The notes beneath the pieces were generated by a model that saw only the letters and a program-made list of their open reading frames with translations, did not search any database and had not been told where the DNA came from. From an uncultured Actinomycetota bacterium (GTDB lineage: Bacteria; Actinomycetota; Humimicrobiia; Humimicrobiales; Humimicrobiaceae): a stretch of DNA of 64,000 nucleotides. Shown in pieces: positions 8,781 through 35,943 of the stretch. The translations under genes were made by a program, and so were the position numbers. Where the stretch lies: assembly GCA_964610315.1 (NCBI GenBank), contig CAZSVM010000013.1, positions 7,014 through 71,013 on the forward strand, read 5' to 3'. How positions within the stretch are numbered: the stretch's first letter is position 1; the number at the start of each line of letters is the position of its first letter.

Positions 8781-8957
8781 TGTAATAGTCCCGGAAACCC
8801 TGACATTGTTGATAAACTATCAGAAAAAAAAACAGCTGTCAAGCTCGAAATGAAGGTCTATTTTTGTCTATATATAGGTTGGTTATCCAGAATTAAGTTC
8901 TTATAAATTCTTATAAATTTGGGTAGTGGGTCAATTTAACCATTAACACCTTCTATA

Positions 8958-20798: not shown

Positions 20799-20819
20799 CT
20801 TTAACTTCCAAAATAAATA

Positions 20820-21542
20820 TTATAAATCCAAATTATATAACTTTTTTAAAGTATTTCTGGCAGCATTCTGCTCAGAATTCTTTTTACTTTTACCCTTGCC
20901 CCTGCCCACTACTTTATGATCAATCATTACCACCGAATAAAATGACTTATTGTGGTCGGGACCTTCCGACTTAACCAGTTTATATCTTGCCAGCCTGGAG
21001 TAATCTGCCTGGATAACTTCCTGAAGATAAGTTTTATAATCTATAATTTCAGGAGTTTTAATATGCTCGTCGATTTTCTCTTTATATCTTTTCAGAACCC
21101 AGCCAGAAGCAAATTTTATCCCTTTATCCATATAAATAGCCCCAATCAACGCTTCTAAGCTATCGGCTAAAATGGACGCCTTTTTTCTGCCCCTGCACGA
21201 TTCTTCATTTTCACTTAAAAGTATCTGCTGATCTATTTTAATTTCCTTGGCTATTTTTAATAGAGTTTTTCTATTAATTAACACAGATCTTATTCTGGCC
21301 ATTTTCCCTTCCGAAAAACTACTGTATTTTTTATATAAATAAGATGTGATTATAAAAGAAAGTACGCTATCGCCCAGAAATTCCAGTTGCTCGTTGCCTC
21401 TTGACTGGATATTTTCCTGATGAGCATAAGATCTGTGAGTTAGACTTTGTATGTAAATTTTTAAATTCGCAGCATCGATTCCAAGACTCTTCAGCCAACC
21501 TCTTACTCTTTTTTCCAGAACTTCTTCATCATCGTTTATCAA
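20820..21542 (-). CDS. rnc: ribonuclease III
   Basis: EQLEFLGDSVL catalytic signature and C-terminal double-stranded RNA-binding domain. Confidence 0.9.
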   Translation of the reverse strand: MINDDEEVLEKRVRGWLKSLGIDAANLKIYIQSLTHRSYAHQENIQSRGNEQLEFLGDSVLSFIITSYLYKKYSSFSEGKMARIRSVLINRKTLLKIAKEIKIDQQILLSENEESCRGRKKASILADSLEALIGAIYMDKGIKFASGWVLKRYKEKIDEHIKTPEIIDYKTYLQEVIQADYSRLARYKLVKSEGPDHNKSFYSVVMIDHKVVGRGKGKSKKNSEQNAARNTLKKLYNLDL

Positions 21543-21595
21543 AAGAATTTCGCCACCTTGTAAACTTAAGTAGATTTTCCCGGTAATTTCTAAAA

Positions 21596-21832
21596 TTATT
21601 TTTTGGAATGGGCATCAATATAATCCAGAGCATCCTTTACAGTAATGATTTTTTCGGCATCTTCATCACTTATTTCTATCCCGAATTTATCCTCAAATGC
21701 CATAATGAGTTCCACCAGATCCAGCGAATCAGCTCCCAGATCGTCAACAAACTTACTTTCAGCTTTAATATCCTCCTCCTTAGCACCAAGTACTTCAATC
21801 AGAACTTCTTTAAGTTTGTCAAAATTTTCCAT
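21596..21832 (-). CDS. acpP: acyl carrier protein
   Basis: [12 protein letters not shown] phosphopantetheine attachment motif. Confidence 0.9.
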
Positions 21833-21890
21833 TATTACTCCTTTTGCCGTTTTTTACCCTTATTATTGTTGGATTTACTTTTTTATTAAT

Positions 21891-22904
21891 TCAATTATTA
21901 ATTTCCCTGCCAATCTTACTAACAAGATTCGATTCCACACTTTCCATGGCCACTTTTACCGCATTCTTAATTGCTTTCGATTTCGAGCTTCCATGCGAAA
22001 TTATTACCAGTCCGTTAAGTCCTAAAAGCTGTGCCCCTCCGTACTCTTCATAATCAAATCTTTTTTTCATTTCCTTAAAAGAACCCTTAATGCCTAAAGC
22101 TGAAAGTTTTGCCAGTAGACTTGAAGTTAAAATTTGTTTTATTTCGCCAAAAAAGAAATCCGCCATACCCTCAACCAGTTTTAATATTACATTTCCTACA
22201 AATCCGTCGCAAACAGCCACATCAGTTGTACCTCCGAACAGTTCTCTGCCTTCTATATTTCCGATGAAATTAATATTGGAGCATTCTTTAAGTAATTTAT
22301 AACTCTCCACTGCCAGTTCATTACCTTTCTTTTCTTCTTCTCCTATATTAATCAAAGCCACTCTGGGATCTTTTACCCCTAAAATATTTTCGGAATATAT
22401 TTTTCCCATAATGGCAAACTGCTTCAAATACAGCGGTTTACAATCAGCATTGGCCCCGGCATCGATTAATACGAACTTTCTGTAACCCAGAGGTATTACC
22501 ACTGCAATGGCCGGTCTGGCTATACTTTCTATTCTTTTTATATTAAAAAGAGAGCAGGCCATTACTGCACCGGTATTTCCGGCAGAAATAAAAACGTCAC
22601 CACCTCCAGCAGATACAAATTGTGAGCCAATAAAAATTGATGAATTTCTTTTTTTCTTTAATACTTCGGAAGGAGATTCATTCATACTTACTTCCTGCCA
22701 GCTGGGGATAATCTCTATACCATCCAGGCTCATCTGGTTTAATTCTGCTACCTCTTTTATTTTATCTACGTTTCCTACCAGTTTAATATTTACCCCAAAA
22801 GCTTCTTTTGCTTCTATGGAGCCCTTTATAATTTCCTCAGGAGCGAAATCCCCTCCCATCGCATCTATAATAATTGAATAGTGATTTGAACTGAGCTCTG
22901 CCAT
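21891..22904 (-). CDS. plsX: phosphate acyltransferase PlsX
   Basis: IIIDAMGGDFAP N-terminus; 337 aa. Confidence 0.9.
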   Translation of the reverse strand: MAELSSNHYSIIIDAMGGDFAPEEIIKGSIEAKEAFGVNIKLVGNVDKIKEVAELNQMSLDGIEIIPSWQEVSMNESPSEVLKKKRNSSIFIGSQFVSAGGGDVFISAGNTGAVMACSLFNIKRIESIARPAIAVVIPLGYRKFVLIDAGANADCKPLYLKQFAIMGKIYSENILGVKDPRVALINIGEEEKKGNELAVESYKLLKECSNINFIGNIEGRELFGGTTDVAVCDGFVGNVILKLVEGMADFFFGEIKQILTSSLLAKLSALGIKGSFKEMKKRFDYEEYGGAQLLGLNGLVIISHGSSKSKAIKNAVKVAMESVESNLVSKIGREINN

Positions 22905-22922
22905 AATCGATTTCGGATTTAA

Positions 22923-23987
22923 TTATTTTTTTGATATTTCCAGTAACCTGTTTATATCTATATATTCCCTGACTACTTCAATTATTTTATCAATCTTTTT
23001 AATCTCGTGGAATCTTACATGGCCGATAATCTCTCCCACTCTTTCCACCGCAGTTAAAGTATCATAATTAACCAGAATCATAGGTACACCTAATTCTTCA
23101 GCTCTTCCCAGTACCACGGTGCTAGGCTGAAAATTACCGGTAAGTATCAGGCACTTAGTAGGAGTTTCCAGGGCAGCAAGTTGGACATCTGCTCTGTCTC
23201 CGCCGGTTATTACTGCTTTATTGGTTTTCCTCCGGAAAAATTTTAGAGCCTGTTCCTGTCCCATAGCTCCAACCATAAATGTCTCTACCAGTTCATCGAT
23301 TTTATCTCCGGCACAGATAATCTGCCCTCCCAGGAGCTCGGACATTTCCTTTATACTTACCGATGATAATATTTTATCCGAAGCGACATATCCCAGAACC
23401 TCAATTTTATTCTTGGTTAAAAATGGAACTACCAGTTCCTCCAGATAATCCATCTGACTTCTTGGAACCCAATTCACAATTACTCCCGCCAGGCAATCTT
23501 TTAAAAATTCTTTGGAATAAAGGATCTGATCCACAATTTCAGAGCTGTATTTTACTACCATAATTACTTTTGCACCTAATTTGTCGCAAATTTTAGGGGC
23601 AGATATTCCCAGAAAATAACCATCTTCTATGCTCTTTGCACCCTCCAGGATCACAATGTCTTTGCCCTTCTGAATTCTGCTATACGCTTTGGCAATTAAA
23701 TCTATAAATCCTTTGGAGAAATTCTCATCTTTTAAACCTTCCCTGTTGTATTGCTGGGTCAATACAATTGGACATATATCTTCAAGTTCTTCTTTTACGT
23801 CCAGAATATTCGATATATACTGGGCATCCTCATCCGTGGTAATCCCCCCTACCCGGGTGGGCAATGTTCCTACCGGTTTCATGTATCCAACTTTTAAGCC
23901 CTTTTCACCGAATAGCTTTCCTACACCCACACACATTGAACTTTTACCGGAAAAAGGTTGGTTTGAAATAAAAAATAACGGAACCAT
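22923..23987 (-). CDS. phosphotransacetylase N-terminal-domain-like protein (BioD/AAA-like + DRTGG domains)
   Basis: P-loop-like SGKSSMCVGVGK at the N-terminus and GGDRADVQLAAL (DRTGG) at the C-terminus. No Pta catalytic domain. Confidence 0.6.
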   Translation of the reverse strand: MVPLFFISNQPFSGKSSMCVGVGKLFGEKGLKVGYMKPVGTLPTRVGGITTDEDAQYISNILDVKEELEDICPIVLTQQYNREGLKDENFSKGFIDLIAKAYSRIQKGKDIVILEGAKSIEDGYFLGISAPKICDKLGAKVIMVVKYSSEIVDQILYSKEFLKDCLAGVIVNWVPRSQMDYLEELVVPFLTKNKIEVLGYVASDKILSSVSIKEMSELLGGQIICAGDKIDELVETFMVGAMGQEQALKFFRRKTNKAVITGGDRADVQLAALETPTKCLILTGNFQPSTVVLGRAEELGVPMILVNYDTLTAVERVGEIIGHVRFHEIKKIDKIIEVVREYIDINRLLEISKK

Positions 23988-23988
23988 T

Positions 23989-26106
23989 CTAACCTCCTAT
24001 TCTTATTCTTACATCACCGGCTATAGATCCTTCTCCCCGTTTCTTTACAAATAACGGGTTTATATCCATTTCCATTATTCCCGGAAAGTCCGTAACCAGC
24101 TGGGAAACTCTGAGTATAATTTCGACTATACTGTCGATATCGGAAGGATCTTCACCCCTGGTGCCTTCCAGCAGTTTAATAGCTTTAATTTCGTTTATCA
24201 TTTCACAGGCAACCTGCCTGCTTATCGGAGCAATCCTGAAAGAAACATCTTTCAGGGTTTCAACATATATCCCTCCCAGTCCGAACATAATCATAGGGCC
24301 AAACTGGGGATCTTCGTTTACTCCTATAATAGTTTCTTTTTTATCTCTGATAAATTCCTGAACCAAAACTCCTCTTATGTTAGCATCGGGCATATATTTT
24401 TTCACACTAAAAAAAATCTGGTCATAATTTTCTTCTAATTCTTTCTCATTATTTATCCCAACTTTTACCCCGCCAACATCGGTTTTGTGTAAAATATTAG
24501 GAGATACAATTTTCAGTACCAGCGGATACCCAATTTTCTTTGCAATTTCTTTCGCTTCACCTATATCGCGGGCAAGTTCAGCTTCAGGTATTCTTATTCC
24601 GTACGCCTCCAGAATTTTCCTTGACTCCATTTCTCCCAGCTCTAATCTGTCTTCGAAACGGCACCGGTCAAATATTTTTTCAACCTTTTCCCTGTCAACA
24701 TCAAAACTCTCTATGGGAGGACTTTTTTTGGATTTCCAATCAGTATATTCCATCATTACTCTTAATGTATCTATTGCTTCCTCCGGAATATTAAAATTTG
24801 GGATGTTTTTTTCAGCTAAAAATTCTACTGCTTTTTCGATTTCTGCGCCTCCTATAAAACTGGTCAGTATTGGTATTTCTTTTCCACTACTCTCCCTAAC
24901 TTCCACAATTGCCCTGGCTGTTTCCAGAGGCTGGGTCATTGCCTGGGGAGTAAGCAGCACTACCACTGCATTAACACCGCTATCCTTTGCCACTACCTCC
25001 AGGGCTTTTTTATATCTATCCGCTAACGCATCTCCCAATAAATCTATTGGGTTATAAAAATTTGCTGCTTCCGGTAAAAATTTTTTTAACTTTTCTATGG
25101 TTTCTTTTTCCGGATTTGCCAGCATTATATTATTTTTTTCACAGGCATCAGTGGCCATTATACCGGGACCGCCTGCATTTGTTATTATGGCAACTTTTTC
25201 ACCTTTAGGCAATGGTTGATATGAAAAAGCTGTTGCATAATTAAAAAAATCTTTTATGGTATCGGCCCTTATTATTCCTGCCTGTTTGAAAGCCGCTTCA
25301 TAGGCTCTGGCTGAGCCGGCAAGGGTACCGGTATGAGAAGATACTGCTCTGGCTCCGGCATCCGTATTACCTGATTTTATAATAATTATGGGCTTTTTTT
25401 TGGAAACCCGGGAAGATATTTTAATAAAATCTCTCCCATTTTTTACCCCTTCAAGATAAGCAGTTATAACCATAGTGTTTTTTTCATTTTCCCATTCATT
25501 AAATAAATCATTCTCTGCAATATCGGCTTTATTACCCAGTGAAACAAATTTGGAGAACCCGATATTGCCAGTTTTTGCCCAATCCAGAACGGAAGTACCC
25601 AGCGCTCCCGATTGAGATAAAAAACCAATATTTCCCCTAGGGGGCATACTGGTTGAAAATGAAGCATTCAACGGACAGGTGGTATCTATTACTCCCAGGC
25701 AGTTGGGGCCCAGTATTCTAATCCCATGTTTTTTTGCTACCTCAATCAACTGGCTTTCCCTTTTTACGCCCTCAATTCCTATTTCTTTGAAACCCGCGGA
25801 AATGACAATAGACCACTTTGTATTTTTTTTTGAACACTCTTCTAGAACTTGACATACATATGGTGCAGGAATAGCTATTATGGCCAGATCAATGTCTATT
25901 GGAATATTTAAAACCGAGGGATAACATTTTATATCATGTATTTTTTCTGCGTAAGGATTAACCGGGAATAATTTCCCTTTAAATCCGGAGTTTACTATAT
26001 TATCCAGTATTACATGACCAACTTTTTCTTCTTCTCTGGCTGCTCCTATTACTGCCACAGAATGGGGACAAAAAAAATTTCCTAAACCCAAAATACAAAC
26101 CTCCAA
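23989..26106 (-). CDS. acetyl-CoA synthetase (ADP-forming), fused alpha/beta (CoA-binding + ligase-CoA + ATP-grasp)
   Basis: N-terminal CoA-binding Rossmann (SVAVIGAAREEEKVGH), a succinyl-CoA-synthetase-like flavodoxin domain and a C-terminal ATP-grasp; 705 aa. Confidence 0.75.
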   Translation of the reverse strand: MEVCILGLGNFFCPHSVAVIGAAREEEKVGHVILDNIVNSGFKGKLFPVNPYAEKIHDIKCYPSVLNIPIDIDLAIIAIPAPYVCQVLEECSKKNTKWSIVISAGFKEIGIEGVKRESQLIEVAKKHGIRILGPNCLGVIDTTCPLNASFSTSMPPRGNIGFLSQSGALGTSVLDWAKTGNIGFSKFVSLGNKADIAENDLFNEWENEKNTMVITAYLEGVKNGRDFIKISSRVSKKKPIIIIKSGNTDAGARAVSSHTGTLAGSARAYEAAFKQAGIIRADTIKDFFNYATAFSYQPLPKGEKVAIITNAGGPGIMATDACEKNNIMLANPEKETIEKLKKFLPEAANFYNPIDLLGDALADRYKKALEVVAKDSGVNAVVVLLTPQAMTQPLETARAIVEVRESSGKEIPILTSFIGGAEIEKAVEFLAEKNIPNFNIPEEAIDTLRVMMEYTDWKSKKSPPIESFDVDREKVEKIFDRCRFEDRLELGEMESRKILEAYGIRIPEAELARDIGEAKEIAKKIGYPLVLKIVSPNILHKTDVGGVKVGINNEKELEENYDQIFFSVKKYMPDANIRGVLVQEFIRDKKETIIGVNEDPQFGPMIMFGLGGIYVETLKDVSFRIAPISRQVACEMINEIKAIKLLEGTRGEDPSDIDSIVEIILRVSQLVTDFPGIMEMDINPLFVKKRGEGSIAGDVRIRIGG

Positions 26107-26125
26107 TTTTGGCTATAACAAATTT

Positions 26126-26341
26126 CTATTTACTCGCTTCCTTTTTTTCCTTCTTTTTGCCCTTCTCTTCAAATGTTATTATCTCGTTTTCAGAATAATA
26201 TCCGCAATTCTCACAAACCCTATGGGATATTTTTTTGCTATGACATCTGGGACATTCCACTATATTTAACATCTGCAACCGCTGGTGAGTTCTTCGTTTA
26301 TCTCTTTTTGATTTTGATGTTTTACTTTTTGGAACAGCCAA
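26126..26341 (-). CDS. rpmF: 50S ribosomal protein L32
   Basis: MAVPKSKTSKSKRDKRRTH N-terminus and CxxC...CxxC zinc ribbon. Confidence 0.9.
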   Translation of the reverse strand: MAVPKSKTSKSKRDKRRTHQRLQMLNIVECPRCHSKKISHRVCENCGYYSENEIITFEEKGKKKEKKEASK

Positions 26342-26462
26342 TTCTATTTCCTCCTAATGAATAATTTGTTACAAACTTGTTATAAATAAGCACAAGTACA
26401 TAAATATAGCATAAAAAGATTAATATTCAACAAATACTGCATACCCTGCCCATCTATAAATA

Positions 26463-26936
26463 TTATTTATCTCCCGTACCTACGGCACCTCTAAACTGCT
26501 CTCTTCCTTTCTCAATAGCATTCAGCAATTTATGCAGCACTGCTTCCAGATTAGCTAATTTTTCATCGGCATAATCTTCAGCCTCGAGTCTTATGGTCCT
26601 TGCTCTGGCCTCTACTGCGGTCATTAATTCTTCTGCTTTTCTATTGGCATTTTTGAGTACCTCGGTCTCACTTACCAGAATCTCTGCTTTTTCTTTTGCT
26701 TCCCTTATAATTTTTTCGGAGTATCTCTTAGCTTCCTCTATCATGTTTTCTCTCTCTTTTACGATCCATCTGGATTGCTTGAATTCTTCCGGAAGTATAT
26801 TCCTTAGCTCATCCAATAAATCATATACCTCGCTTTCATTAACCATCACATTGGATGAAAAAGGAATTCTTTTACTTTTATCTAAAAGCCCTTCAATACG
26901 ATCGACAATTTCAAATGCATCCATGTTATTCTCCAT
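26463..26936 (-). CDS. hypothetical coiled-coil protein (charged, Glu/Lys/Arg-rich)
   Basis: 157-aa ORF between coaD and rpmF. Not YceD/DUF177, since it lacks Cys motifs. Confidence 0.4.
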   Translation of the reverse strand: MENNMDAFEIVDRIEGLLDKSKRIPFSSNVMVNESEVYDLLDELRNILPEEFKQSRWIVKERENMIEEAKRYSEKIIREAKEKAEILVSETEVLKNANRKAEELMTAVEARARTIRLEAEDYADEKLANLEAVLHKLLNAIEKGREQFRGAVGTGDK

Positions 26937-26947
26937 ATCTATTCTTT

Positions 26948-27442
26948 TTATTTAAAATTATTTTTATTAAAACTTTCAATTATATCTTTTTCTATTTCTT
27001 CCGGAACCAGACCTTTTATGCAGCCTTTAAACATAGCTACCTCCTTCACCGCGCTGGAACTAAGGTAGGCAAATCTGGGATTGGTTACCATAAACATGGT
27101 TTCTACTTCCGGATTTAATTTTTTATTTATCTGCGCCATTTGAAATTCATACTCAAAATCCGATATAGCTCTTAAGCCCTTGACTATAACCACCGCCTTC
27201 ATTTTTTTGGCCAGCTCCACCAGTAATCCATCAAAGGTAATTACCTCCACATTTTTCATATCATCCAGCGCTCTCTTTACAAAATCAACTCTTTTTCCTA
27301 CAGAGTAAAGAGGTTTTTTCCTGGGGCTTCTTGATATGGCTACTATCACTTTAGAGAAAATCCTGGAACACCTGTCGATTATATCCTTGTGCCCCTCAGT
27401 TAGAGGATCGTAAGTTCCGGGACATAATGCTATCTTTTCCAT
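26948..27442 (-). CDS. coaD: phosphopantetheine adenylyltransferase
   Basis: ALCPGTYDPLTEGHKDII (the T/HxGH nucleotidyltransferase motif). Confidence 0.9.
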   Translation of the reverse strand: MEKIALCPGTYDPLTEGHKDIIDRCSRIFSKVIVAISRSPRKKPLYSVGKRVDFVKRALDDMKNVEVITFDGLLVELAKKMKAVVIVKGLRAISDFEYEFQMAQINKKLNPEVETMFMVTNPRFAYLSSSAVKEVAMFKGCIKGLVPEEIEKDIIESFNKNNFK

Positions 27443-27465
27443 AATTTAAATCCTATCTTCCGATT

Positions 27466-28020
27466 TTAATAAGGAGAAAGGTAAATTACTTTTTTATCTC
27501 CAAAATGTGATTCTTTGATCACCTTTAATTTTTCTATCTCTTTTCCAATATCTCTTTTAAAAAAATATTCATAGATTATCAGAGTATCCGCTCCGCCAAT
27601 TCCTTTTTCCGGTATAATATCGAATATTTCCCTCATTATATCATCCTCAATCCTGTATGGCGGATCCAGAAAAATTATATCCCACTTTAAACCATTATGA
27701 AACTTAAGGAATTTCAAAACATCACTTCTCACTATTTTATACTTTTCACCGCTAATTTTTAAGCTTCTGATATTATATTCTATCAAACCAATAGACTCAA
27801 AGCTTTTATCTACAAAATACACCAGATTACAGTTTCTACTTAGGGATTCTATTCCCAGTGATCCCGTTCCAGCAAATAAATCAAGGACATTTGCTCCTTC
27901 TATTCTTCGGCCAAGGACATTGAAAATACTCTCTTTAACACTATCTAAAGTAGGTCTGATTTTATAATCCGGGGGAGATTTTAATCTTTTACCTTTAAAT
28001 TTACCTGAAATAACCCTAAT
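27466..28020 (-). CDS. rsmD: 16S rRNA (guanine966-N2)-methyltransferase RsmD, probable ATT start
   Basis: ORF track gives only the C-terminal 118 aa (GTG start, 27822). The same frame extends upstream to IRVISGKFKGKRLKSPPDYKIRPTLDSVKESIFNVLG...LDLFAGTGSLGIES, the canonical RsmD N-terminus. TGA TGA lie immediately upstream, so the only available start is ATT at 28018-28020, with GGTGA 6 nt upstream. The FLDPPY motif is present. Confidence 0.75.
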   Translation of the reverse strand: MRVISGKFKGKRLKSPPDYKIRPTLDSVKESIFNVLGRRIEGANVLDLFAGTGSLGIESLSRNCNLVYFVDKSFESIGLIEYNIRSLKISGEKYKIVRSDVLKFLKFHNGLKWDIIFLDPPYRIEDDIMREIFDIIPEKGIGGADTLIIYEYFFKRDIGKEIEKLKVIKESHFGDKKVIYLSPY

Positions 28021-28042
28021 AGTTCATCACCGTATAGTAGAA

Positions 28043-29776
28043 TTATTCTATTGAAAATATGTAAGGATATAAAGGCTGCTCGCCTTTATGTATTTCTATA
28101 TCTATTTTAGGAAAATACTTTTTAATCTTTTTCTTAATATTATCAGTATCTTCCGGTCTGGCATCTTTTCCAGTATAAAAAGTAATAACTTCTTCTGTCG
28201 GGGAGGCAATATCCCTTATCAGATCTACTACCGCATCCACTACATTATCCGAAATCACCCTGACCTTGCCGTTGGACAGTCCGATATACTCCCCTTTCTT
28301 TATTTCACCAACCATAAGGTTTGCATTTCTTACTGCCTGGGTTACCTCCCCGTCTTTGGTTTTTTGGGCCGATTCTTCCATATTGTATATATTCTCTTCT
28401 ATCCCCGTATCGGGGTTGTAACTTAGAATCGCAGATATTCCCGCCGGTATGCTTCTGGTTGGTACCACATAAATACTTTTTTTCTTTATAATTTTTTTGG
28501 CTTGATTGGCAGTAAGTATAATATTTTTATTGTTGGGGAATATGATAATCTCGGAAGCCTCGGAGTTGTTTACGGCCTTTACTATATCGTATGTTGAAGG
28601 ATTCATACTCTGCCCGCCGCTCACTATAATATCGGTACCTATGCTTTTGAATATCCCCTCCAATCCATCTCCGTTAGCTATTGCCAGCAGGGCTCTTTTT
28701 GTTTCTATTCTTTCTTCTTCCAATTTTTTCCCTCCTGCTGCTTCCTGTCTTTGATCCTCCATATTATTAATCTGGATATCGTGCAGGGTACCTTCCTTTA
28801 ATGCTCTTCTTAAAACTTTATAGGGATGGTTGGTATGTACATGTATCTTGACCAGATTTTCGTTTCCTACTACCATGGCACTATCGCCAAAACTCTCGAT
28901 TCGTTCTCTAAGTCTTTCTATATCTATCCCGCTGCCCTTCACCATAAGTTCCGTACAATAAGTATATTTAATATCATAGGTGCGTTTTACTTCTTTCAAA
29001 CTTTCTTTTTCAACCGGTGCAGTATCCGATTTATTACTGGCATTATTTTTTCCTTTTGGTTTTCCGCCACCGCTTTTATTACCACTACTGCCCTGCAGGG
29101 ACAGTATTTTTTGAGGCTCTTTAAAATTTTTCTCCAGTTCCCTATCTGCACCATCGATCCCATTCAAAGCTTTTCTGGTTCCAATCAGTATATCCAGAAT
29201 ACCCTGCGCACCGGCATCTACCACATCTGCCTTTTTTAAAACCGGCAGGAGAAAAGTGGTTCGCTCTACGGATTTCTCGGTTTCGAAAATAATCTTATCC
29301 AGAAAATCCATAATTTTTATCTTATGAGTATTGCTGGTTAAATTTTCGACAAAATCACAGATATCCTTTATAGTGGTAAGCATGGTTCCTTCGGTTGGAT
29401 TCTGTACGGAGCTGTATGCTAGATCTCTTGATGATTTTAAGGCTTCCTTAATTATATCCAGATCAAAATCGTTGCTTTTTATTATTATATCAAAAAAACC
29501 CTTAAGTATCTGGGATAATATTACACCTGAATTTCCTCTGGCTCCCATTAATGCTCCGAATGAAGCTTTTTCCAGCACACTTTTTATGGTAAAATTCCTC
29601 AGCTTCGAAAGCTCCTCTTTAATCGAATTCAAAGTCAACAGCATATTGGTGCCGGTATCTCCGTCCGGAACCGGAAATACATTCAAATCGTTGATTTTTC
29701 CTTCATTTACCTTAAAATTTTCTATTATAACATCGATTACTTTTTTTAAATCCTGTTCGTTTACTTCATTAATCAT
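28043..29776 (-). CDS. fakA: DAK2-domain fatty-acid kinase subunit FakA (YloV-like)
   Basis: N-terminal DhaL/Dak2 (PDGDTGTNM) and C-terminal DegV-like half; 577 aa. Confidence 0.8.
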   Translation of the reverse strand: MINEVNEQDLKKVIDVIIENFKVNEGKINDLNVFPVPDGDTGTNMLLTLNSIKEELSKLRNFTIKSVLEKASFGALMGARGNSGVILSQILKGFFDIIIKSNDFDLDIIKEALKSSRDLAYSSVQNPTEGTMLTTIKDICDFVENLTSNTHKIKIMDFLDKIIFETEKSVERTTFLLPVLKKADVVDAGAQGILDILIGTRKALNGIDGADRELEKNFKEPQKILSLQGSSGNKSGGGKPKGKNNASNKSDTAPVEKESLKEVKRTYDIKYTYCTELMVKGSGIDIERLRERIESFGDSAMVVGNENLVKIHVHTNHPYKVLRRALKEGTLHDIQINNMEDQRQEAAGGKKLEEERIETKRALLAIANGDGLEGIFKSIGTDIIVSGGQSMNPSTYDIVKAVNNSEASEIIIFPNNKNIILTANQAKKIIKKKSIYVVPTRSIPAGISAILSYNPDTGIEENIYNMEESAQKTKDGEVTQAVRNANLMVGEIKKGEYIGLSNGKVRVISDNVVDAVVDLIRDIASPTEEVITFYTGKDARPEDTDNIKKKIKKYFPKIDIEIHKGEQPLYPYIFSIE

Positions 29777-29957
29777 GTTATGATACCGCCTGCTTTAATT
29801 TAAAATTATCAGGCATTCTGTACCGTTTGCTACTCTATTATACCAAAATCCTTTTTATTTCTGCCAAAATAAAAATCTTTTTTCTACCAGTGCTTTTCTA
29901 CATTGCTTAAGACTTTATTAAATAAAAATTGTTTCTATCAATATTCATTTACCTTTT

Positions 29958-30143
29958 GGTAATGGGTCAATTTGGAAAATATTAGTTATAGACAGAAAGG
30001 AGTTTTTATAGAATAATTAGACTATGCAAAAGCGGTCAAGCAAAAAACATAAGCAAAGACTTAAATGCTATAGCTTTTCGTATAGTCAAACAAGCTACTA
30101 GTGAGCATGTCAAAAATCCTGCTGCAGTTGCTCTAGGCAGGCT
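29958..30143 (+). repeat. copy A of ~187-bp inverted duplication (promoter/RBS + first ~40 codons of small basic-protein gene), with frameshifted 25-codon remnant ORF 30024..30101
   Basis: Near-identical to the reverse complement of 35432..35619. It differs by an A-run of 6 versus 8 and by about 5 substitutions upstream of the ATG. Similarity ends exactly at ...ctaggcaggct. Confidence 0.85.
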
Positions 30144-30160
30144 GCAGATAAAATTAAATA

Positions 30161-31366
30161 TTATTTTTCTCTGCCGCGGGTTGCAACATCGAATACCACA
30201 GCTGCAGCAAGTACACCGGCTCTGACGATATACTGGTAAGCTATGTCCATACCCATAAGATTCATACCGTTCGTAAGTGACGACATAACCAGTGCGCCGA
30301 TAATGGATCCCGAAACCTTGCCAACACCACCGGACATGGATGCACCGCCGACAAAAGCGGCCGCGATTGCATCAAGTTCGAATAACTGTCCCGCTGTAGT
30401 TGTAGCAGACTGCAGACGGGATGCAAAAAGGATACCTGACAGGCCGGAAAGCATACCCATTGAAGCAAAAACCACTAAAGTTATTTTCTTTACGCTGATA
30501 CCACTCAGCTCAGCCGCTTCGGGATTTCCGCCCACGGCATAAATGTGCCTGCCGAGCAGAGTCTGGGTGGTAATAAAATTATAGATCACAAATACAATCA
30601 GTACCACTACCGCGGTCCACGAGAGGCCTCTGTATCCAGCCAGAATCCAGGTAATACCGCCGATTAAAATCGATACGAATACCAATTTAAGAATGTAGAA
30701 ATTCAATGGTAATACTTTGAAATCATAAGCCCGGGTTTTTCTGCGGTCACTGTTCGATCTTATGATGAAATATATAATGACCATTATACCAAGGATAAGA
30801 GTTACTTTATTTACCCCTGGTAGAAAATTAATGCCTGGAATATCCGGAACATAGCCATTACCTATGGCATTAAAAGCTTTATTAGGAATAATTATGGTGC
30901 CGGTGCTTATGGTTGCAAGCTGGAGCGCTCCCCTGTAACCCAGCCATCCGGCGAGAGTTGCCACAAATGCCGGGATTCTCATCTGAGCTACCAGAAAACC
31001 GGTAAAGATTCCTGCCAGAATTCCAAATCCCAGTATAAGCAGTATGGTTACAGATGAAGGCAGGTGCCAGGATACCATTGAAATGGCCGCTACTGCACCC
31101 AGAAAGCCGGACAGATAGCCAACTGACAGATCTATATGCCTTATGATAATTACCAGTGTCATGCCGACTGCCAGTACTGCTATATAGCCGGTTTGATTTA
31201 TAAGGTTGCTTATATTTCTTGATGAAATGAAAATACCTTTAGTGGCGATAGAGAAAAAAACTACGATAACAAATAAGGCGATGTACATACCAAATTCACG
31301 GACATTCTCCTGTAGCAAATCCTTTGCGTCGCTTAGGAATGATTTCTTAAATCTCGTTAATTCCAT
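30161..31366 (-). CDS. sugar ABC transporter permease (CUT2/BPD_transp_2 family, ribose/xylose/fructose type)
   Basis: 401 aa with ~10 transmembrane helices and the family's conserved C-terminal region. DNA visibly GC-rich. Confidence 0.85.
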   Translation of the reverse strand: MELTRFKKSFLSDAKDLLQENVREFGMYIALFVIVVFFSIATKGIFISSRNISNLINQTGYIAVLAVGMTLVIIIRHIDLSVGYLSGFLGAVAAISMVSWHLPSSVTILLILGFGILAGIFTGFLVAQMRIPAFVATLAGWLGYRGALQLATISTGTIIIPNKAFNAIGNGYVPDIPGINFLPGVNKVTLILGIMVIIYFIIRSNSDRRKTRAYDFKVLPLNFYILKLVFVSILIGGITWILAGYRGLSWTAVVVLIVFVIYNFITTQTLLGRHIYAVGGNPEAAELSGISVKKITLVVFASMGMLSGLSGILFASRLQSATTTAGQLFELDAIAAAFVGGASMSGGVGKVSGSIIGALVMSSLTNGMNLMGMDIAYQYIVRAGVLAAAVVFDVATRGREK

Positions 31367-31368
31367 AA

Positions 31369-32160
31369 TTAATTTCCCTCCTGATGACTATTAGCAAAAT
31401 CATCACGAGCGCCAATTATATAGGCCACAACCTGCTCGCGGAAAGTATCAAGGTCACCGATTACGGGAGTTTCACGCACTTTGCGCCCATGACGCAGCAC
31501 CATCATCCGGTCGCTTACCTGGTAAATATCTTCCAGGCGGTGACTGATGATAATAATCGAATTACCCTGCGCTTTAAGTTCCCGTACCAGGTCAAGTACC
31601 TTGCTGATGGCTGAGACGCTTAGAGCCGCAGTGGGTTCGTCCATTATGGTAACCTTGTTGTTGAAACCAGTTGCACGGGCGATTGCTATTGCCTGGCGCT
31701 GGCCTCCCGATAATCTCTCTACCCTGGAACGTACCGAGGAGACATTAATTTTGAGGCGATCCAGGAGTCGCTGTGTCTCCTGTTCCATATAATGTTTGTC
31801 CATTACACTAATTGGGCCCAGTCTTGTACTTACGGCTTCATGTCCCATAAAAACGTTGGCTGCCACATCAAGATTATCGGCAAGGGCCAGATCCTGATAT
31901 ACCATTTCAATGCCCAGCTGGCGTGCATCCCAGGGACTGGTGATATGTACCTTTTTACCTTCGATAAAAATTTCCCCTGCATCGGGCATATATGCGCCGC
32001 TTAGAACCTTCATCAGGGTAGATTTACCAGCGGCGTTGTCGCCTACCAATCCCAGTACTTCATTATAGTATAGTGTCAGGTCAACTCCGCGCAATGCCTG
32101 TACACCGCCAAAATTCTTCCTAATATTCCGCATTTCTACGATAGGAGTAGCTTTTGCCAT
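31369..32160 (-). CDS. sugar ABC transporter ATP-binding protein, single ABC domain (FrcA-like)
   Basis: Walker [10 protein letters not shown], signature LSGGQRQ, Walker B IMDEPT, H-loop ISHRL. Only 263 aa. Confidence 0.85.
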
Positions 32161-32316
32161 GAACTCTTCCTCCTTTCTTAGGAAAATATAAAATTATAAA
32201 CATGCTGGAAAGAACTAAATTTTATAATGCCGAATGAAGTGAGGTACTCCTTCTCTGATTAAGATAACTTTCACTTCGCTTGAGTTTTTCACTTTTTGTA
32301 ACAGTTGCAGATATTA

Positions 32317-32356
32317 TACAGGAATAGTGATGTATTAGTCTATCACTATTCCTGTA
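32317..32356 (-). promoter_or_regulatory. perfect 15-bp inverted repeat (tacaggaatagtgat-N10-atcactattcctgta) between substrate-binding-protein and ATPase genes; intercistronic stem-loop or operator
   Basis: Read directly from the sequence. No downstream U-tract, so not a classic terminator. Confidence 0.4.
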
Positions 32357-32386
32357 TTGGTTAACTGTTATTTCTTCCGCTATTTT

Positions 32387-33523
32387 TTACTGCGGTAAAT
32401 TTTCCAATCCAGTAAAATCGCTAGCTGGCCAGTAGCCAGAGTCGATTATAGCGGATACGAGATTACTCTGATCTACAGCAATAATTGCGGACGGTTTTGC
32501 AGGTACGTCGATAACACCATTGTTGTAGGTGGTAGTTTCTGAAGGAGTTCCACCACTGAGATAAGCTACAGCTGCGTTAATGGCATCGTCAACCAGTGTT
32601 CGAACGTCCTTCAATACAGTCATTGACTGTTTGCCGTCGATGATGTACTGTACGGAAGCTTCTTCAGCATCCTGGCCGGTGACCACGTAGCTGGTAACAT
32701 CACTGTCAGCTGCAAATGCGTCGGCAATAGCACGGGCTGTGCCGTCGTTGGGAGCGAGTATAAATACATCGCCTTTATCGGCAGCGGTGGCAACGGTCAG
32801 GTTAGCTTCTGCCAGGCTCTTGGCATCATCAAAATCCCAGTTGGTGGTAACCTGGCCAATGATCTTGCCCATTTCATCACGGGTAAGCGTAGCTTTGTCC
32901 TGCAGAGCAACAGCTTCACTGGAGTTTACGATATAAAAGGTTCCGTCAGCAATCTTGGGTTGCAGAACGTTCCAGGCGCCCTCGAAGAACAGGAAAGCGT
33001 TGTTATCAGTTGCTGCGCCGGCATACAGATAAAGCGGGTTGCCAGTACCAGTAGCATGATCAACCAGGTACTGACCCTGGGCTTCACCAACGGCAATGCT
33101 GTCAAAGGTCACATAGTAATCAACAGCATCAGTGTCACGGATCAGGCGGTCATAGGAGATAACCTTTACACCTGCATCCCTGGCTTCTTCTGCAGCGGCA
33201 GCGGCAGCGGTAGCGTCCTGGGGGCAGATTATTAGAACCTGGATGCCTTTGGTGATCAGAGATTCAACATTCTCCTTTTCTTTGGCAGAAGATGCCTGGC
33301 TGAATAGAATCTCTACATCATAGCCAGCAGCACTGAGCGCATCATTGAAGCGGGTTTCATCCTGTATCCATCTCGGTTCATCCTTGGTTGGAAGAACAAT
33401 ACCCACAGAACCACTAACTGCTGCTCCTCCAGCTGCTGCTTCTCCTCCTTTACATCCACTACCAATGAATAATAACGATATTATAAAAACTACTGAAAGT
33501 AGCAACACTAATATTCTTTTCAA
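32387..33523 (-). CDS. sugar ABC transporter periplasmic substrate-binding lipoprotein
   Basis: TTG start with AAGGAGG ribosome-binding site. Lipoprotein signal LLFIGSGC. Periplasmic-binding-protein type I fold motifs. GC-rich. Confidence 0.85.
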   Translation of the reverse strand: MKRILVLLLSVVFIISLLFIGSGCKGGEAAAGGAAVSGSVGIVLPTKDEPRWIQDETRFNDALSAAGYDVEILFSQASSAKEKENVESLITKGIQVLIICPQDATAAAAAAEEARDAGVKVISYDRLIRDTDAVDYYVTFDSIAVGEAQGQYLVDHATGTGNPLYLYAGAATDNNAFLFFEGAWNVLQPKIADGTFYIVNSSEAVALQDKATLTRDEMGKIIGQVTTNWDFDDAKSLAEANLTVATAADKGDVFILAPNDGTARAIADAFAADSDVTSYVVTGQDAEEASVQYIIDGKQSMTVLKDVRTLVDDAINAAVAYLSGGTPSETTTYNNGVIDVPAKPSAIIAVDQSNLVSAIIDSGYWPASDFTGLENLPQ

Positions 33524-33677
33524 TTTAACCTCCTTATTAATCTTTATCCTTTGATTAATTAGACATAGTTATAAAGAGTTTATTTCTTGCCTGGGATACA
33601 CCTCCTTTCTAATTAAATAAAATTTCTGCTGTATATAATAACCACCTCCTTTTAGTATTTACATTCTTTATTTTTTT

Positions 33678-34949
33678 TCAAGATGATGTCTCTTGATCCA
33701 TCCTGTAGGGGAACTCATGTATAAGTATAGATTCAATTGCATTAAATGAAGCACCTCTTATGCATGTATCTTCTCCAAGTGAAGATACTTTAATCTCTGG
33801 AATAACGAAAGGTATAGAACTTTTAATTTTTTTTGTAATTGGCTTGATAAATAATTTACTTACTTCGGGCAAGTTAAATATATCACCGCCCAAGACCACT
33901 AACTGTGGATCTACAATTAAAATTAGATTGATTATCCCTACAGATAATAATTCGGCTATGTTAGTTATAATGTCATTCGCAAGCCTATCACCTTTTATTG
34001 CTGCTTTGCATACTAAGAAGGGAGTTATTCTTTTAATATTATTTTTTGCCATGTCTGTGATTATAGTTTTTTTACCCTTTTGGATTTCTGCTATAGTCCT
34101 TTCCCTGATACTTCTTATTGAGGAATGTTCTTCCAGAAATCCTCTGTCTTTTACTTTAAAAGCTAGTTTTTTAGAATCGGATATTGTGAACCCTATCTCA
34201 CCTGCAGAGCCATTGGAACCTCTGACTAGTTTGTTGTCGACGATAACTCCTGCCCCAATTCCATTACTTACCTCTACAAATATAATAGTTTTGTATTTTT
34301 GCCCCTCTCCATAATGCTTCTCTCCTATAGCAGATAGATTGGCATCGTTTTCCATCAATACAGGTATATTAAATTCATTAGTGATAATGTTTTTTAAATT
34401 AAGGTCTTTCCATTCCCAATCTTTATAATGGTTGGTACTTAATACTCTCTCAGTTTTTATATTGACAGCTGCCGGTACTCCTATGCATATAGCCTCAATT
34501 TTATACAGTTTTGAATTCTTACCAGTGGTGTATTTTTTTATAAACTCTTCTATTTCAGTAACAATTCTTTTTATTGCTCTTTTATTCTTTAAAATTACAG
34601 AGCCTTTAAATTTCTCGACTATTTCACCCCTCAAATTAACTAAGGCAATTTTTAATCTTTCTTTTCCCAGGTCCATTCCTATTACAAAGAATTTATTTTT
34701 ATTAATTACCAGCGGTGTTGGCCTTTTCCCCATTTTTGTTTTAATTCTTTCGGTTTCAATCACATAACATTTTTCTATAAGTTTTTCTACTGCTCTGGAA
34801 ACTGCTGGTGCGCTGATACCTAAATCTTTAGATATTTCAGCTCTTGAAATAGGATTTTTTGCACGCAGATGATTAAAAATTATTGACATATTAATCTTTT
34901 GTTGCAATCTTGGATTAGCAGCATTCAAAAATTTAAATGAGCTTCTCAT
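33678..34949 (-). CDS. ROK-family transcriptional repressor (NagC/XylR-like) with N-terminal winged helix-turn-helix (HTH) domain
   Basis: HTH ISRAEISKDLGISAPAVSRAVEKL; ROK sugar-kinase-like domain with Gly-rich ATP-fold motifs. AT-rich like the host. Confidence 0.8.
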   Translation of the reverse strand: MRSSFKFLNAANPRLQQKINMSIIFNHLRAKNPISRAEISKDLGISAPAVSRAVEKLIEKCYVIETERIKTKMGKRPTPLVINKNKFFVIGMDLGKERLKIALVNLRGEIVEKFKGSVILKNKRAIKRIVTEIEEFIKKYTTGKNSKLYKIEAICIGVPAAVNIKTERVLSTNHYKDWEWKDLNLKNIITNEFNIPVLMENDANLSAIGEKHYGEGQKYKTIIFVEVSNGIGAGVIVDNKLVRGSNGSAGEIGFTISDSKKLAFKVKDRGFLEEHSSIRSIRERTIAEIQKGKKTIITDMAKNNIKRITPFLVCKAAIKGDRLANDIITNIAELLSVGIINLILIVDPQLVVLGGDIFNLPEVSKLFIKPITKKIKSSIPFVIPEIKVSSLGEDTCIRGASFNAIESILIHEFPYRMDQETSS

Positions 34950-35331
34950 ATAAGTTACTTACTTACTTAATGTTACTAAGTGTAAGCTAAAATTATAACA
35001 GAAAGAATTTATTAGTCAATAGATCGAATTGTCCAGTGTGGATCAATTTGAATCAATTAATCTTACAATTTCCTCAATTGTCCAAATATGATCCTCTATC
35101 CCTGTTGCCGTTGCAGGTGTTTGGGATAAGGATTAGACAAAGATTTACGAACACGAGTAAAATTATAATACATAAAATGTAAGGCAACAGCATATTCCAA
35201 ATTTTTTATCTTCTTTGAAATAACTATATAATATTGAATTACTATAAGACAAAGAAAAGAAATCTACAATCAATATTTGATTATCAAAGAGTTATTAATT
35301 CAATATCGGTTAAGAAACAATTTAGAAATTA

Positions 35332-35553
35332 TTATTTGCTCCAACGTTCTTTTGCGGCTTTTTGGGCAATCTCTTTTCTTCTTTTAGCACTGAGTTTTTC
35401 TGCTCTTGCTTTACCGCCCTTTAAACCGCCTAGCCTGCCTAGAGCAACTGCAGCAGGATTTTTGACATGCTCACTAGTAGCTTGTTTGACTATACGAAAA
35501 GCTATAGCATTTAAGTCTTTGCTTATGTTTTTTTTGCTTGACCGCTTTTGCAT
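35332..35553 (-). CDS. small basic protein with C-terminal GGKARAEKLSAKRRKEIAQKAAKERW motif (function unknown, putative nucleic-acid binding)
   Basis: 73 aa with GAAAGGAG ribosome-binding site. Its 5' end and promoter are duplicated at 29958..30143. Preferred over the overlapping plus-strand ORF 35234..35560. Confidence 0.5.
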   Translation of the reverse strand: MQKRSSKKNISKDLNAIAFRIVKQATSEHVKNPAAVALGRLGGLKGGKARAEKLSAKRRKEIAQKAAKERWSK

Positions 35554-35619
35554 AGTTTAATTATTCCATAAAAACTCCTTTCTATCTATAATTAATATTT
35601 TCCAAATTGACCCACTACC
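35432..35619 (-). repeat. copy B of ~187-bp inverted duplication (intact copy, contains start of gene 35332..35553)
   Basis: See copy A at 29958..30143. Confidence 0.85.
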
Positions 35620-35751
35620 TACCTTTTATTTACCTTGAAAAGTAAGTAATAAAATGCTAATATTCCTTCCTGACTTATTTATATTAATTTTATATAACCG
35701 CTGAAATTAGAAATATAAAAAAATAAATTTTTAAGATATAGGGGAGAAAAA

Positions 35752-35943
35752 ATGTCTAAAGTATGTGAAATCTGCGGTAAAAAGACTACTTTTGGAAATA
35801 ATGTAAGCCATTCACATAAAAAAACCAAAAGAAACTTCAAGCCCAACGTTCATAAAGCAAAGGTAGAGTATAAAGGTCAGGTTAAGACTATAAATATATG
35901 CGCCAGCTGCTTAACCTCGGGTAAGGTTAAAAAAGTAATTTAA
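35752..35943 (+). CDS. rpmB: 50S ribosomal protein L28
   Basis: [11 protein letters not shown]...SHSHKKTKR; 63 aa. Confidence 0.9.

Follow-up and report, generated by a model that had tools for sequence, protein, structure and literature searches.

A probable decayed composite transposon of an IS1-like family around a ROK/sugar-ABC operon in the fakA–rpmB spacer of a Humimicrobiia-like actinobacterium

Results

Gene content of the locus

The locus lies in a 64-kb window, by which we mean the whole stretch of DNA that was analyzed. Between fakA and rpmB it contains a 5,662-bp block (29958–35619) in which genes for a ROK regulator and a sugar ABC transporter are bracketed by two near-identical inverted arms, A and B, with an intact gene for a 73-aa basic protein (sm73) at arm B. 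The ORFs in and beside the block are all accounted for: FakA, the ABC transporter genes, ROK, sm73, L28, and GNAT. The features are as follows (TSD, target-site duplication).

8923..8941, + strand: solo family tip GGTAGTGGGTCAATTTAAC in an intergenic spacer (tip match)
29950..29957, no strand: left copy of the likely TSD, TACCTTTT, identical to 35620–35627; the family makes 8-bp TSDs
29958..30143, + strand: arm A, a second, inverted left end with promoter region and the first ~40 sm73 codons (alignment)
29958–29976, + strand: arm A tip GGTAATGGGTCAATTTGGA, within arm A
30025–30102, + strand: arm A sm73 remnant, 25 codons, with the A6 frameshift (translation)
30144..35033, − strand: captured chromosomal segment (Pfam matches, DNA identity to native ROK–ABC loci, junction sequences)
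30161–31366, − strand: permease (Pfam)
31369–32160, − strand: ATPase (Pfam)
32387–33523, − strand: sugar-binding protein (Pfam)
33678–34949, − strand: ROK regulator (Pfam)
35019–34992, − strand: predicted ROK promoter, TTGACT-16-TATAAT (promoter match)
35034..35052, + strand: the mini-element's inner right end (IRR), degenerate, CAGTGTGGATCAATTTGAA (agrees with the family tip at 14/19 positions)
35046..35218, − strand: transposase remnant, last ~58 residues, with one frameshift (tblastn with intact family transposases)
35332..35553, − strand: sm73, the gene conserved at left ends of the IS family, here intact and encoding a 73-aa basic protein (ORF and homologues)
35432..35619, − strand: arm B, mini-element left end with promoter region and 5′ part of sm73, with A8 (alignment)
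35601–35619, − strand: arm B tip GGTAGTGGGTCAATTTGGA, the outer 19 nt of the repeat
35620..35627, no strand: right copy of the likely TSD, TACCTTTT (sequence)

A gapped local alignment of the arms (29958–30143 on the + strand, 35619–35432 on the − strand) spans 188 columns. It contains one 2-nt indel, which corresponds to A6 in arm A versus A8 in arm B, and 5 mismatches, none of which lies downstream of the sm73 ATG or within it. BLASTN of the window against itself recovers the pair with E = 1e-83 and found no other long repeats in the 64 kb, and a repeat search of the window resolves it into two abutting inverted pairs, I1 (30042–30143/35432–35533; 102 nt, 100%) and I2 (29958–30047/35530–35619; 90 nt, 94%). 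These results bear out the near-identical 187-bp inverted duplication proposed in an earlier note on this DNA, along with its account of the two copies: copy B runs on into an intact 73-aa ORF, and copy A is frameshifted by A6 to a remnant that reads MQKRSSKKHKQRLKCYSFSYSQTSY followed by a stop. The ribosome-binding site that the same note assigned to sm73 did not survive, as 21 nt separate the RBS-like GAAAGGAG from the ATG downstream of it, too great a distance for a Shine–Dalgarno sequence.

The whole block occupies a spacer that is uninterrupted in relatives

Immediately outside each arm lies a copy of TACCTTTT, a perfect 8-bp direct repeat that encloses the block. In 12 related Humimicrobiia-like Actinomycetota species the fakA–rpmB spacer is uninterrupted (~300–670 bp, with rpmB directly divergent from fakA), none of them has sm73, ROK, or ABC genes in it, and the flanks of the block in the window (181 and 132 nt) align to it, one on each side of the insert. 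One TSD thus surrounds the entire unit, and the site is empty in relatives, although the spacer is itself natively repetitive. Specifically, it contains GTAAATAAAAG-like units, and at the homologous position one relative (L017) shows a pair of similar 8-mers separated by 4 nt, which makes the TSD reading strong rather than proven. As had been suspected, the arm pair is a footprint left by the block's arrival.

The segment between the arms matches the native ROK–ABC operon of relatives. Window positions 35022–30142 share 76–83% DNA identity with the native ROK–SBP–ATPase–permease loci of two relatives (L148 and L151); in relatives a BadFG-type kinase gene follows the operon and, in L148, a GGDEF gene precedes it. 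This homology reaches the inner right end on one side and halts at the boundary of arm A on the other, where arm similarity ends at 30143, 18 nt from the end of the permease ORF (30161). The ABC genes are GC-richer than their surroundings in the window, and the same contrast between ROK and the ABC genes is present in the operon of relatives; it is thus native to the operon and no marker of an insertion edge. The view that a GC-rich ABC "cassette" alone had been inserted was accordingly rejected: the inserted unit is the whole of 29958–35619, including ROK and the 73-aa gene. Arm A supplies an extra inward-facing promoter convergent on the permease gene, and antisense transcription from it is possible.

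A chimeric join or a mis-resolved repeat could also place such arms around an operon, in which case the inverted duplication would be present in no single genome. The source is a metagenome-assembled genome (MAG) contig, short k-mers cannot resolve the 102-bp identical core, and the GC step at the ABC genes might be taken for a join, but that step is shared with relatives, as described above, and both arm A junction paths were matched at 100% by Logan contigs from SRR14802573. Of these, L145 equals window 30071..19995 and covers the path from fakA through the TSD, tip, and A6 at the outer junction, and L144 equals 33753..30114 and covers the path from ROK through the permease to the arm at the inner junction. 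In a second run (SRR14802574), a comparison at the protein level identified contig L146 with an identical FakA protein at the same locus coordinates. Moreover, the exact TSD, family-typical tips, and right-end remnant are unlike the product of a chimera. Independent junction support pertains to arm A only, as the Logan contig carrying GNAT stops inside rpmB, and for the pairing of outer and inner arm halves the original assembly is the single source, since the k=31 Logan contigs break off within the 102-bp core. Collectively, these data make an artefact very improbable.

The arms are left ends of an IS1-like family

Sequence comparison identifies the outer 19 nt of the repeat (GGTAGTGGGTCAATTTGGA) as the terminal inverted repeat that bounds a large family of IS1-like transposons. 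The tip GGTAGTGGGTCA(A/G)TTT lies upstream of sm73 homologues in 74/104 unrelated metagenomic and viral contigs with enough upstream sequence, and 29 of those 74 also have an inverted second tip and a perfect 8-bp TSD, delimiting elements of 722–3,779 bp. Target duplications of 8 bp were present at all 29 tip-bounded elements inspected, at two plasmid copies, and in the window, and a full DDE transposase of ~275–300 aa is encoded by about 23 of the 29. The canonical order is a 19–21-bp terminal repeat, sm73, variable cargo, the DDE transposase, and a terminal repeat; further variable passenger genes can follow the transposase. The sm73-type gene, encoding a 70–90-aa basic protein, starts ~65 nt inside the left end; the transposase, where it is the last gene, ends ~9–27 nt from the element end. 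Canonical right and left ends have only 16–30 nt in common, and the minimal autonomous member (left end, sm73, transposase, right end) measures 1,365 bp.

The 187-bp inverted repeat is thus the sequence common to two outward-facing IS left ends. The 73-aa gene, previously taken for a partly duplicated resident gene, is the transposon's own left-end gene, and the boundary of the repeat does recur elsewhere, being an IS family's terminal inverted repeat. Its recurrence noted earlier at 8924–8938 was also found, at 8923–8939 with 2 mismatches in 17, where 0.14 matches are expected by chance. Beside this solo tip (8923–8941) there is no sm73 or transposase similarity, and it appears to be a relic of another insertion. 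Literature searches on the tip sequence, ISMhu11, and IS1-family passenger genes returned nothing relevant.

The best library match of the family transposase is NCBIfam transpos_IS1 (E = 9e-14); in Pfam, DDE_Tnp_IS1 and also DDE_Tnp_IS240 match. The scores nonetheless fall under the curated IS1 cut-offs (51.8 versus 100 bits for NCBIfam and 20.9–24.0 versus 24.1 bits for Pfam). Homologues with 51–60% identity, labelled "IS1 family transposase" by PGAP, are encoded on Mesorhizobium, Acidiphilium, and Hoeflea plasmids, and the Mesorhizobium and Acidiphilium copies, which were inspected, lie in elements that share the family tips and 8-bp TSDs and include an sm73 homologue. The transposase is encoded by an ORF of its own, with a separate start and an N-terminal HTH, and is often separated from sm73 by cargo genes.

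Homologues of sm73 are represented by 10,938 cluster representatives (50% identity) at E ≤ 0.001, labelled "hypothetical" or "histone H1." The protein has no match in Pfam or NCBIfam, its only match in PHROGs is phrog_2384 (unknown function), at the C-terminal motif, and a profile search of the PDB yielded nothing beyond weak, compositional similarity to designed HEAT-like alphaRep proteins. An AlphaFold2 model is all-helical and of low confidence (pLDDT 66, pTM 0.31), and a Foldseek search of the PDB with it returned nothing at E < 1. Thus, no function can be claimed for sm73 from its fold. A tblastn search with sm73 against the plasmids returned no matches although two of those plasmids encode homologues, a result that reflects BLAST filtering or composition rather than absence.

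A mini-element and a second left end flank the operon

At arm B, the left end, sm73, the last 58 transposase codons, and the degenerate right end together form a mini-element of 586 bp (35034–35619). The transposase remnant corresponds to about residues 229–286 of 290, the N-terminal ~228 codons being deleted, and was recovered by tblastn using 20 intact transposases of the family as queries (E as low as 1e-16). The inner right end, which matches the tip at 14/19 positions in right-end orientation, lies ~9 nt beyond the remnant stop. The cargo is thus flanked by two copies of one IS, the mini-element with both ends and the second, inverted left end. In a composite transposon, one or both of the flanking IS would also encode a working transposase; here there is only the frameshifted C-terminal remnant, and tblastn found no intact family transposase in the element or in the rest of the 64-kb window.

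Taken together, the data make it very probable that the block is a decayed composite transposon, in which two IS1-like copies around the ROK/sugar-ABC operon were inserted between fakA and rpmB. Besides the lack of an intact transposase, the repetitive spacer, and the arm pairing known from one assembly, two further observations count against this reading. The tip of arm A carries a G5-to-A change where nearly all of the listed family tips have G. In addition, the arm mismatches are unevenly spread, 5 in the outer 66 nt versus 0 in the inner 120 nt (Fisher p = 0.005), which simple decay of two copies does not explain.

This second pattern fits gene conversion or recombination between the arms, and thus bears on the idea that the block is an invertible segment whose arms recombine to flip the 5.3-kb interior. 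Such a flip would move the intact sm73 from one arm to the other and change the promoter that reads into the operon. The repeats are long enough for RecA-dependent recombination. However, no site-specific recombinase gene was found among the ORFs in or beside the block, a single orientation was assembled, and inversion would be a secondary property of transposon arms rather than an alternative origin. Inversion isomers are possible, but as an account of the locus an invertible segment is highly unlikely.

The block might instead derive from a single cargo-carrying IS in which a copy of the left end later took the place of the right end or was added to it. That canonical members hold passenger genes on both sides of the transposase, and that the window contains only one transposase remnant, would suit such an origin. 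Yet the degenerate right end follows the remnant stop as closely as in compact canonical members and native homology begins just outside it, which places ROK–ABC outside the first element, not inside. Moreover, there is no template for a 187-bp conversion, because canonical ends share so little sequence. We regard a single IS as improbable, and favor the composite transposon.

Discussion

We infer the following order of events for the composite transposon. Two IS1-like copies would have come to flank the ROK/sugar-ABC operon in a related genome, inverted so that each left end faced away from the operon. Upstream of ROK, the copy would have shrunk to the mini-element, with sm73 intact and the outer bases of the right end mutated. 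In the copy downstream of the permease, a deletion would have removed everything inward of sm73 codon 40, with a 2-nt (CT) microhomology where arm A now meets a point 19 nt beyond the permease stop. The inner ends being dead or gone, the outer left ends would have served as the transposon termini, and the unit would then have moved into the fakA–rpmB spacer, creating the 8-bp duplication. As neither the element nor the window holds an intact transposase, mobility at the time of insertion must be assumed, with transposase probably supplied in trans or before its own decay, and the element is presumably now immobile.

Composite transposons with inverted IS copies include the IS1-flanked Tn1681 and the IS10-flanked Tn10. 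The block resembles composite (compound) transposons, defined in general terms elsewhere (PMC5024762), in having two IS copies around non-transposition cargo, outer ends that serve as termini, and one TSD for the unit. It differs in that both IS copies are heavily decayed (586 and 186 bp) with no surviving transposase gene, and in that it carries, instead of a resistance or toxin gene, a housekeeping-type sugar-uptake operon that is native to its host lineage. Siguier et al. in 2009 reportedly described both cargo-carrying "transporter IS" (tIS) and nonautonomous mini-IS or MITE derivatives. Canonical members of the present family are likewise IS with passenger genes, and the mini-element resembles a 722-bp sm73-only derivative in locus L027; however, the cargo in the window lies outside the mini-element, between it and the second left end.

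In the IS1 family, an insA/insB′ pair gives an InsAB′ fusion by −1 frameshifting at an A6C motif, and InsA has a zinc finger and an HTH. In contrast, the family described here has a single-ORF transposase with its own HTH and no InsA–InsB′ fusion, its small protein has no detectable similarity to InsA, and most members examined here have passenger genes. The A-run is not an IS1-type frameshift site, since A8 lies at sm73 codons 7–9, the wrong place, and a −1 shift there meets an immediate stop. The family is nevertheless IS1-like in having a small basic gene just inside the left end followed by a DDE transposase with its best match to IS1, and in its 8-bp TSD, which falls within the 8–9 bp of IS1 elements. 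IS1 family ends begin GGnnnTG (PMC10425158). The ends of the present family start GGTAGTG; arm B and dozens of loci read GGTAGTGGGTCARTTTGAA, which fits this pattern, and arm A reads GGTAATG.

The subgroup is characterized by ends reading GGTAGTGGGTCARTTTGAA, an 8-bp TSD, a stand-alone HTH–DDE transposase, and, adjoining the left end, an obligatory small basic protein of 70–90 aa with the invariant core NPAAVALGRLGGLKGGKARA..L....R..IA..AA..RW. It could conceivably be an undescribed branch of the IS1 superfamily in which the sm73-type protein is a new IS-encoded accessory factor, for example an end-binding regulator replacing InsA, a reading that we put forward tentatively and consider somewhat doubtful. 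If true, it would explain the retention of sm73 even in nonautonomous mini-elements such as that in the window.

The sugar-transport operon at this locus is a transposed copy in a non-native context, which should be heeded when the locus is annotated. It offers a nucleotide-level example of an IS capturing and relocating its lineage's own sugar-uptake operon, regulator and promoter included, in an uncultured, low-GC, Humimicrobiia-like class for which little is known about mobile elements. Furthermore, sm73 and the 19-nt tip can be used to delimit IS1-like elements and their cargo in genomes and metagenomes.

Results

The inverted repeat and its two arms

The 187-bp inverted repeat consists of arm A (29958–30143, plus strand) and arm B (35432–35619, minus strand). 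A repeat search found two abutting pieces, 30042–30143/35432–35533 (102 nt, 100% identical) and 29958–30047/35530–35619 (90 nt, 94%), which merge in a gapped local alignment of the arms into 188 columns with five mismatches and one 2-nt indel. Self-BLASTN of the window matches the arms at E = 1e-83 and finds one other repeat only, a 32-bp pair near 17,000 (direct, 17001–17032 and 17933–17964, 30/32 identical). The near-identical duplication described in the earlier note, made from the sequence alone, is thus upheld, as are its details: the indel is A6 in copy A versus A8 in copy B, copy A is frameshifted to a frame of 25 codons, and copy B enters an intact ORF for a 73-aa basic protein (sm73; 35332–35553, minus strand). 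Copy A resembles copy B as far as 30143; the permease stop is 18 nt away. The five substitutions are all confined to the outermost 66 nt of the arms, before the ATG, whereas the inner 120 nt differ by the indel alone (Fisher p = 0.005); the clustering may reflect gene conversion between the two arms or else a recombinant origin.

The repeat is real. For run SRR14802573, independently assembled Logan contigs show 100% identity to the window: L145 (30071..19995) holds the fakA flank, the target-site duplication (TSD), the terminal tip of arm A, A6 and 30 nt of the identical core, and L144 (33753..30114) runs from the ROK 3′ end through the permease gene into 30 nt of arm A. Both stop exactly k-1 nt inside the 102-bp core, as expected because of the repeat there. 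A contig from a second run (L146, SRR14802574) agrees with L145 at the two levels compared, an identical FakA protein and the locus coordinates. Pairing of outer with inner arm halves lies beyond the reach of k=31 contigs; the alternative pairing would be an inversion isomer, and the assembled pairing is favored as the one that leaves sm73 intact.

The insertion between fakA and rpmB

Genes at the insertion site (Pfam assignments)
28043–29776, minus strand: FakA-like kinase (fakA)
30161–33523, minus strand: ABC permease, ATPase and sugar-binding protein
33678–34949, minus strand: ROK regulator
35752–35943, plus strand: ribosomal protein L28 (rpmB)
Neighboring gene: GNAT acetyltransferase

A FakA genome scan retrieved 17 related low-GC Actinomycetota MAGs (Hydromicrobium/Humimicrobiaceae type; 72–82% FakA identity). 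Upstream sequence is available for 12 of them, and in each of these rpmB and fakA are directly divergent across a spacer of ~300–670 bp from which sm73, ROK and ABC genes are absent, and the window flanks at 29777–29957 and 35620–35751 (181 and 132 nt) align to the relatives' spacer to the left and right of the insert. The 8-mer TACCTTTT (plus strand) stands directly outside both arms, at 29950–29957 and 35620–35627. The spacer is natively repetitive, and by itself the 8-mer pair is suggestive of a TSD; since the IS family described below makes 8-bp duplications, it is the expected TSD when the two are combined. The whole block between fakA and rpmB is an insertion, and the empty spacer in 12 relatives, together with the flanking 8-mer, supports the earlier view of the repeat pair as a footprint of the event that brought it in.

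Two other genes of the window have features of their own. For an RsmD-like ORF (27466–28042, minus strand), the called product has 118 aa and matches the Pfam profile at positions 68–180 only; upstream, its frame extends without a stop to '*TIRVISGKFKGKRLKSPP...', a stretch lacking ATG, GTG and TTG, and a non-canonical (Ile) start codon is therefore probable. The apparent ~220-nt gap recurs in 17/17 relatives. A 672-aa WD40-like repeat protein (36563–38581, minus strand) has repeat units that can be seen at the DNA level as direct repeats (families D1 and D2) spaced by 126 nt.

A widespread IS1-like family

Each arm is an end of an IS1-like transposon that is widespread and has sm73 as its left-end gene. 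Homologues of sm73 number more than 7,900, across phyla, in a word-indexed search and 10,938 50%-identity cluster representatives in a full HMMER scan (E <= 0.001); none has a Pfam domain, and their invariant core is NPAAVALGRLGGLKGGKARA..L....R..IA..AA..RW. We collected 122 homologue-encoding loci, drawn from metagenomes and IMG/VR. The 19-nt terminal inverted repeat, or tip (GGTAGTGGGTCA(A/G)TTT, counted at <=3 mismatches), was present in 74 of the 104 loci with >=260 nt upstream, typically 60–75 nt before the sm73 start. An inverted second tip followed downstream in 43 of these, 29 of which had a perfect 8-bp direct repeat just outside both tips and spanned 722–3,779 bp; the ends of tip-bounded elements have 16–30 nt in common, no more. 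A full 275–300-aa protein starting MNKLS.EKR.QI..ALVEGNSIRAT is encoded in ~23 of the 29, and fragments only in six.

This protein, the family transposase, matches NCBIfam 'IS1 family transposase' at E = 9e-14, with a score of 51.8 bits that falls short of the cut-off (100 bits), and Pfam DDE_Tnp_IS1 at 21–24 bits (cut-off 24.1); DDE_Tnp_IS240 also matched. IS1 hallmarks in ISfinder are ends starting GGnnnTG and 8–9-bp duplications (tabulated in PMC10425158). Plasmids of Mesorhizobium loti, Acidiphilium multivorum and Hoeflea encode homologues with 51–60% identity that are labeled 'IS1 family transposase', and the M. loti and Acidiphilium plasmid copies have identical-type tips, 8-bp TSDs (CGCTGGTG and AAGCCGAG) and one sm73 homologue each. 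The M. loti homologue (CP050295.1 470622–470831; L143 3078–3287) is labeled 'histone H1', presumably for its Lys/Ala-rich composition; tblastn of the window sm73 against the plasmid collection that contains it gave no match, a filtering artefact. In the gene map, a RES/Xre toxin-antitoxin pair lies directly past the right tip of the Acidiphilium element.

The smallest autonomous member (L109 8931–10295, 1,365 bp) comprises left end, sm73, transposase and right end. A 722-bp mini-derivative (L027 5371–6092) holds sm73 and the transposase tail only, and an apparent ~660-bp fragment bounded by tips (L073 997–1657) adjoins a full element; nonautonomous forms are therefore common in the family. The layout of two ORFs, with the one for the small basic protein adjoining the left end, parallels insA/insB of IS1. 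However, the IS1-like family has no frameshift fusion, and sm73 is without detectable similarity to InsA.

Anatomy of the element in the window

Parts of the element (minus strand from 35619) and of the second copy
35619–35601, minus strand: left-end tip, then promoter region
35553–35332, minus strand: sm73, then 113-nt spacer
35218–35046, minus strand: transposase remnant, last ~58 codons, one frameshift (matched to 20 intact family transposases, E down to 1e-16)
35034–35052, plus strand: inner right end CAGTGTGGATCAATTTGAA, 14/19 match to tip, right-end orientation
30143–29958, plus strand: arm A, outer 186 bp of second IS copy, inverted (junction sequence)

The inner right end lies ~9 nt beyond the stop of the transposase remnant, as in canonical members with the transposase as last gene, where ORF coordinates place its end ~9–27 nt from the element end. 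Thus, 35034–35619 is a complete, internally deleted mini-element of 586 bp, with the outermost bases of its right end mutated; ROK-locus homology to relatives starts directly outside it. On the permease side, native homology runs 19 nt beyond the stop (TATTTAATTTTATCTGCAG) and there gives way abruptly to sm73 in reverse complement, from codon ~40 (CCTGCCTAGAGC...), a junction that identifies arm A as the inverted outer end of a second IS copy. The CT dinucleotide common to both partners there is a signature of an illegitimate deletion junction.

The segment 35022–30142 has 76–83% DNA identity to native loci L148 (GCA_964610385.1) and L151 (GCA_964578625.1), where a BadFG-type kinase gene comes after the ROK–sugar-binding protein–ATPase–permease unit and, in L148, a GGDEF gene before it. 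A ROK promoter match, TTGACT-16-TATAAT, was carried along. The earlier note had taken a GC-rich cassette as the inserted piece; the GC step (ROK 0.30–0.32 versus ABC genes 0.43–0.50) is alike in the window and in both native loci, which rules it out as the insertion boundary. The closest named homologues of the binding protein (78–90% identity) are from Anaerolineae/Chloroflexota, suggesting that the ABC genes entered this actinobacterial lineage by an older inter-phylum transfer. The binding protein has 378 aa here, and many homologues 500–716 aa.

The arm A promoter region faces the 3′ end of the permease gene, and no terminator-like site was found between the two, so antisense transcription from this predicted promoter is possible. 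A promoter-like match with a TG extension, TAGATA-17-AATAAT, ends 6 nt before the sm73 ATG, and the mRNA may therefore be leaderless. The previously proposed ribosome-binding site GAAAGGAG, 21 nt upstream of the ATG, is unlikely to serve sm73.

Discussion

Collectively, these data make it very probable that the repeat represents two left ends, both facing outward, of a composite transposon of the IS1-like family, now decayed, and that this transposon carried a lineage-native sugar-uptake operon to the fakA–rpmB spacer. In the simplest history, the ROK-ABC operon of a related genome would have come to lie between two IS copies with their left ends outward. Through deletions, one copy would have lost its inner part and the other most of its transposase, and the inner right end that was left would have degenerated. 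With the two outer left ends serving as termini, the 5,662-bp unit would then have transposed into the spacer, creating the 8-bp duplication, with transposase supplied by a flanking copy still intact at the time or by another copy in the cell. The order of the deletions relative to transposition is one that we infer.

Profile libraries, a PDB sequence search, structure prediction and a fold search gave no usable lead on sm73 function. Because sm73 adjoins the left end, is kept in nonautonomous mini-elements (L027 and the window) and is basic and helical, the most economical guess, by analogy with InsA, is a predicted end- or promoter-binding regulator. Its C-terminal motif, GG.ARA..LS...R..IA..A...RW, may be a portable module; the motif is also N-terminal in larger proteins, namely a 349-aa ORF inside an element (L098 504–1553) and the 338-position profile phrog_2384. 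In the libraries and papers searched, neither this subgroup of IS nor the small protein conserved in it seems to be annotated.

The recurrence of the repeat's start near 8924–8938, noticed earlier, also holds: the tip is found at 8923–8939, where 0.14 matches are expected by chance. This solo tip (GGTAGTGGGTCAATTTAAC, 8923–8941, plus strand) lies in a spacer with a 104-aa gene on one side and a radical-SAM-type gene on the other, and its flanks have no similarity to sm73 or transposase. As a probable relic of a further insertion, it would mean that the IS1-like family came to this genome more than once.
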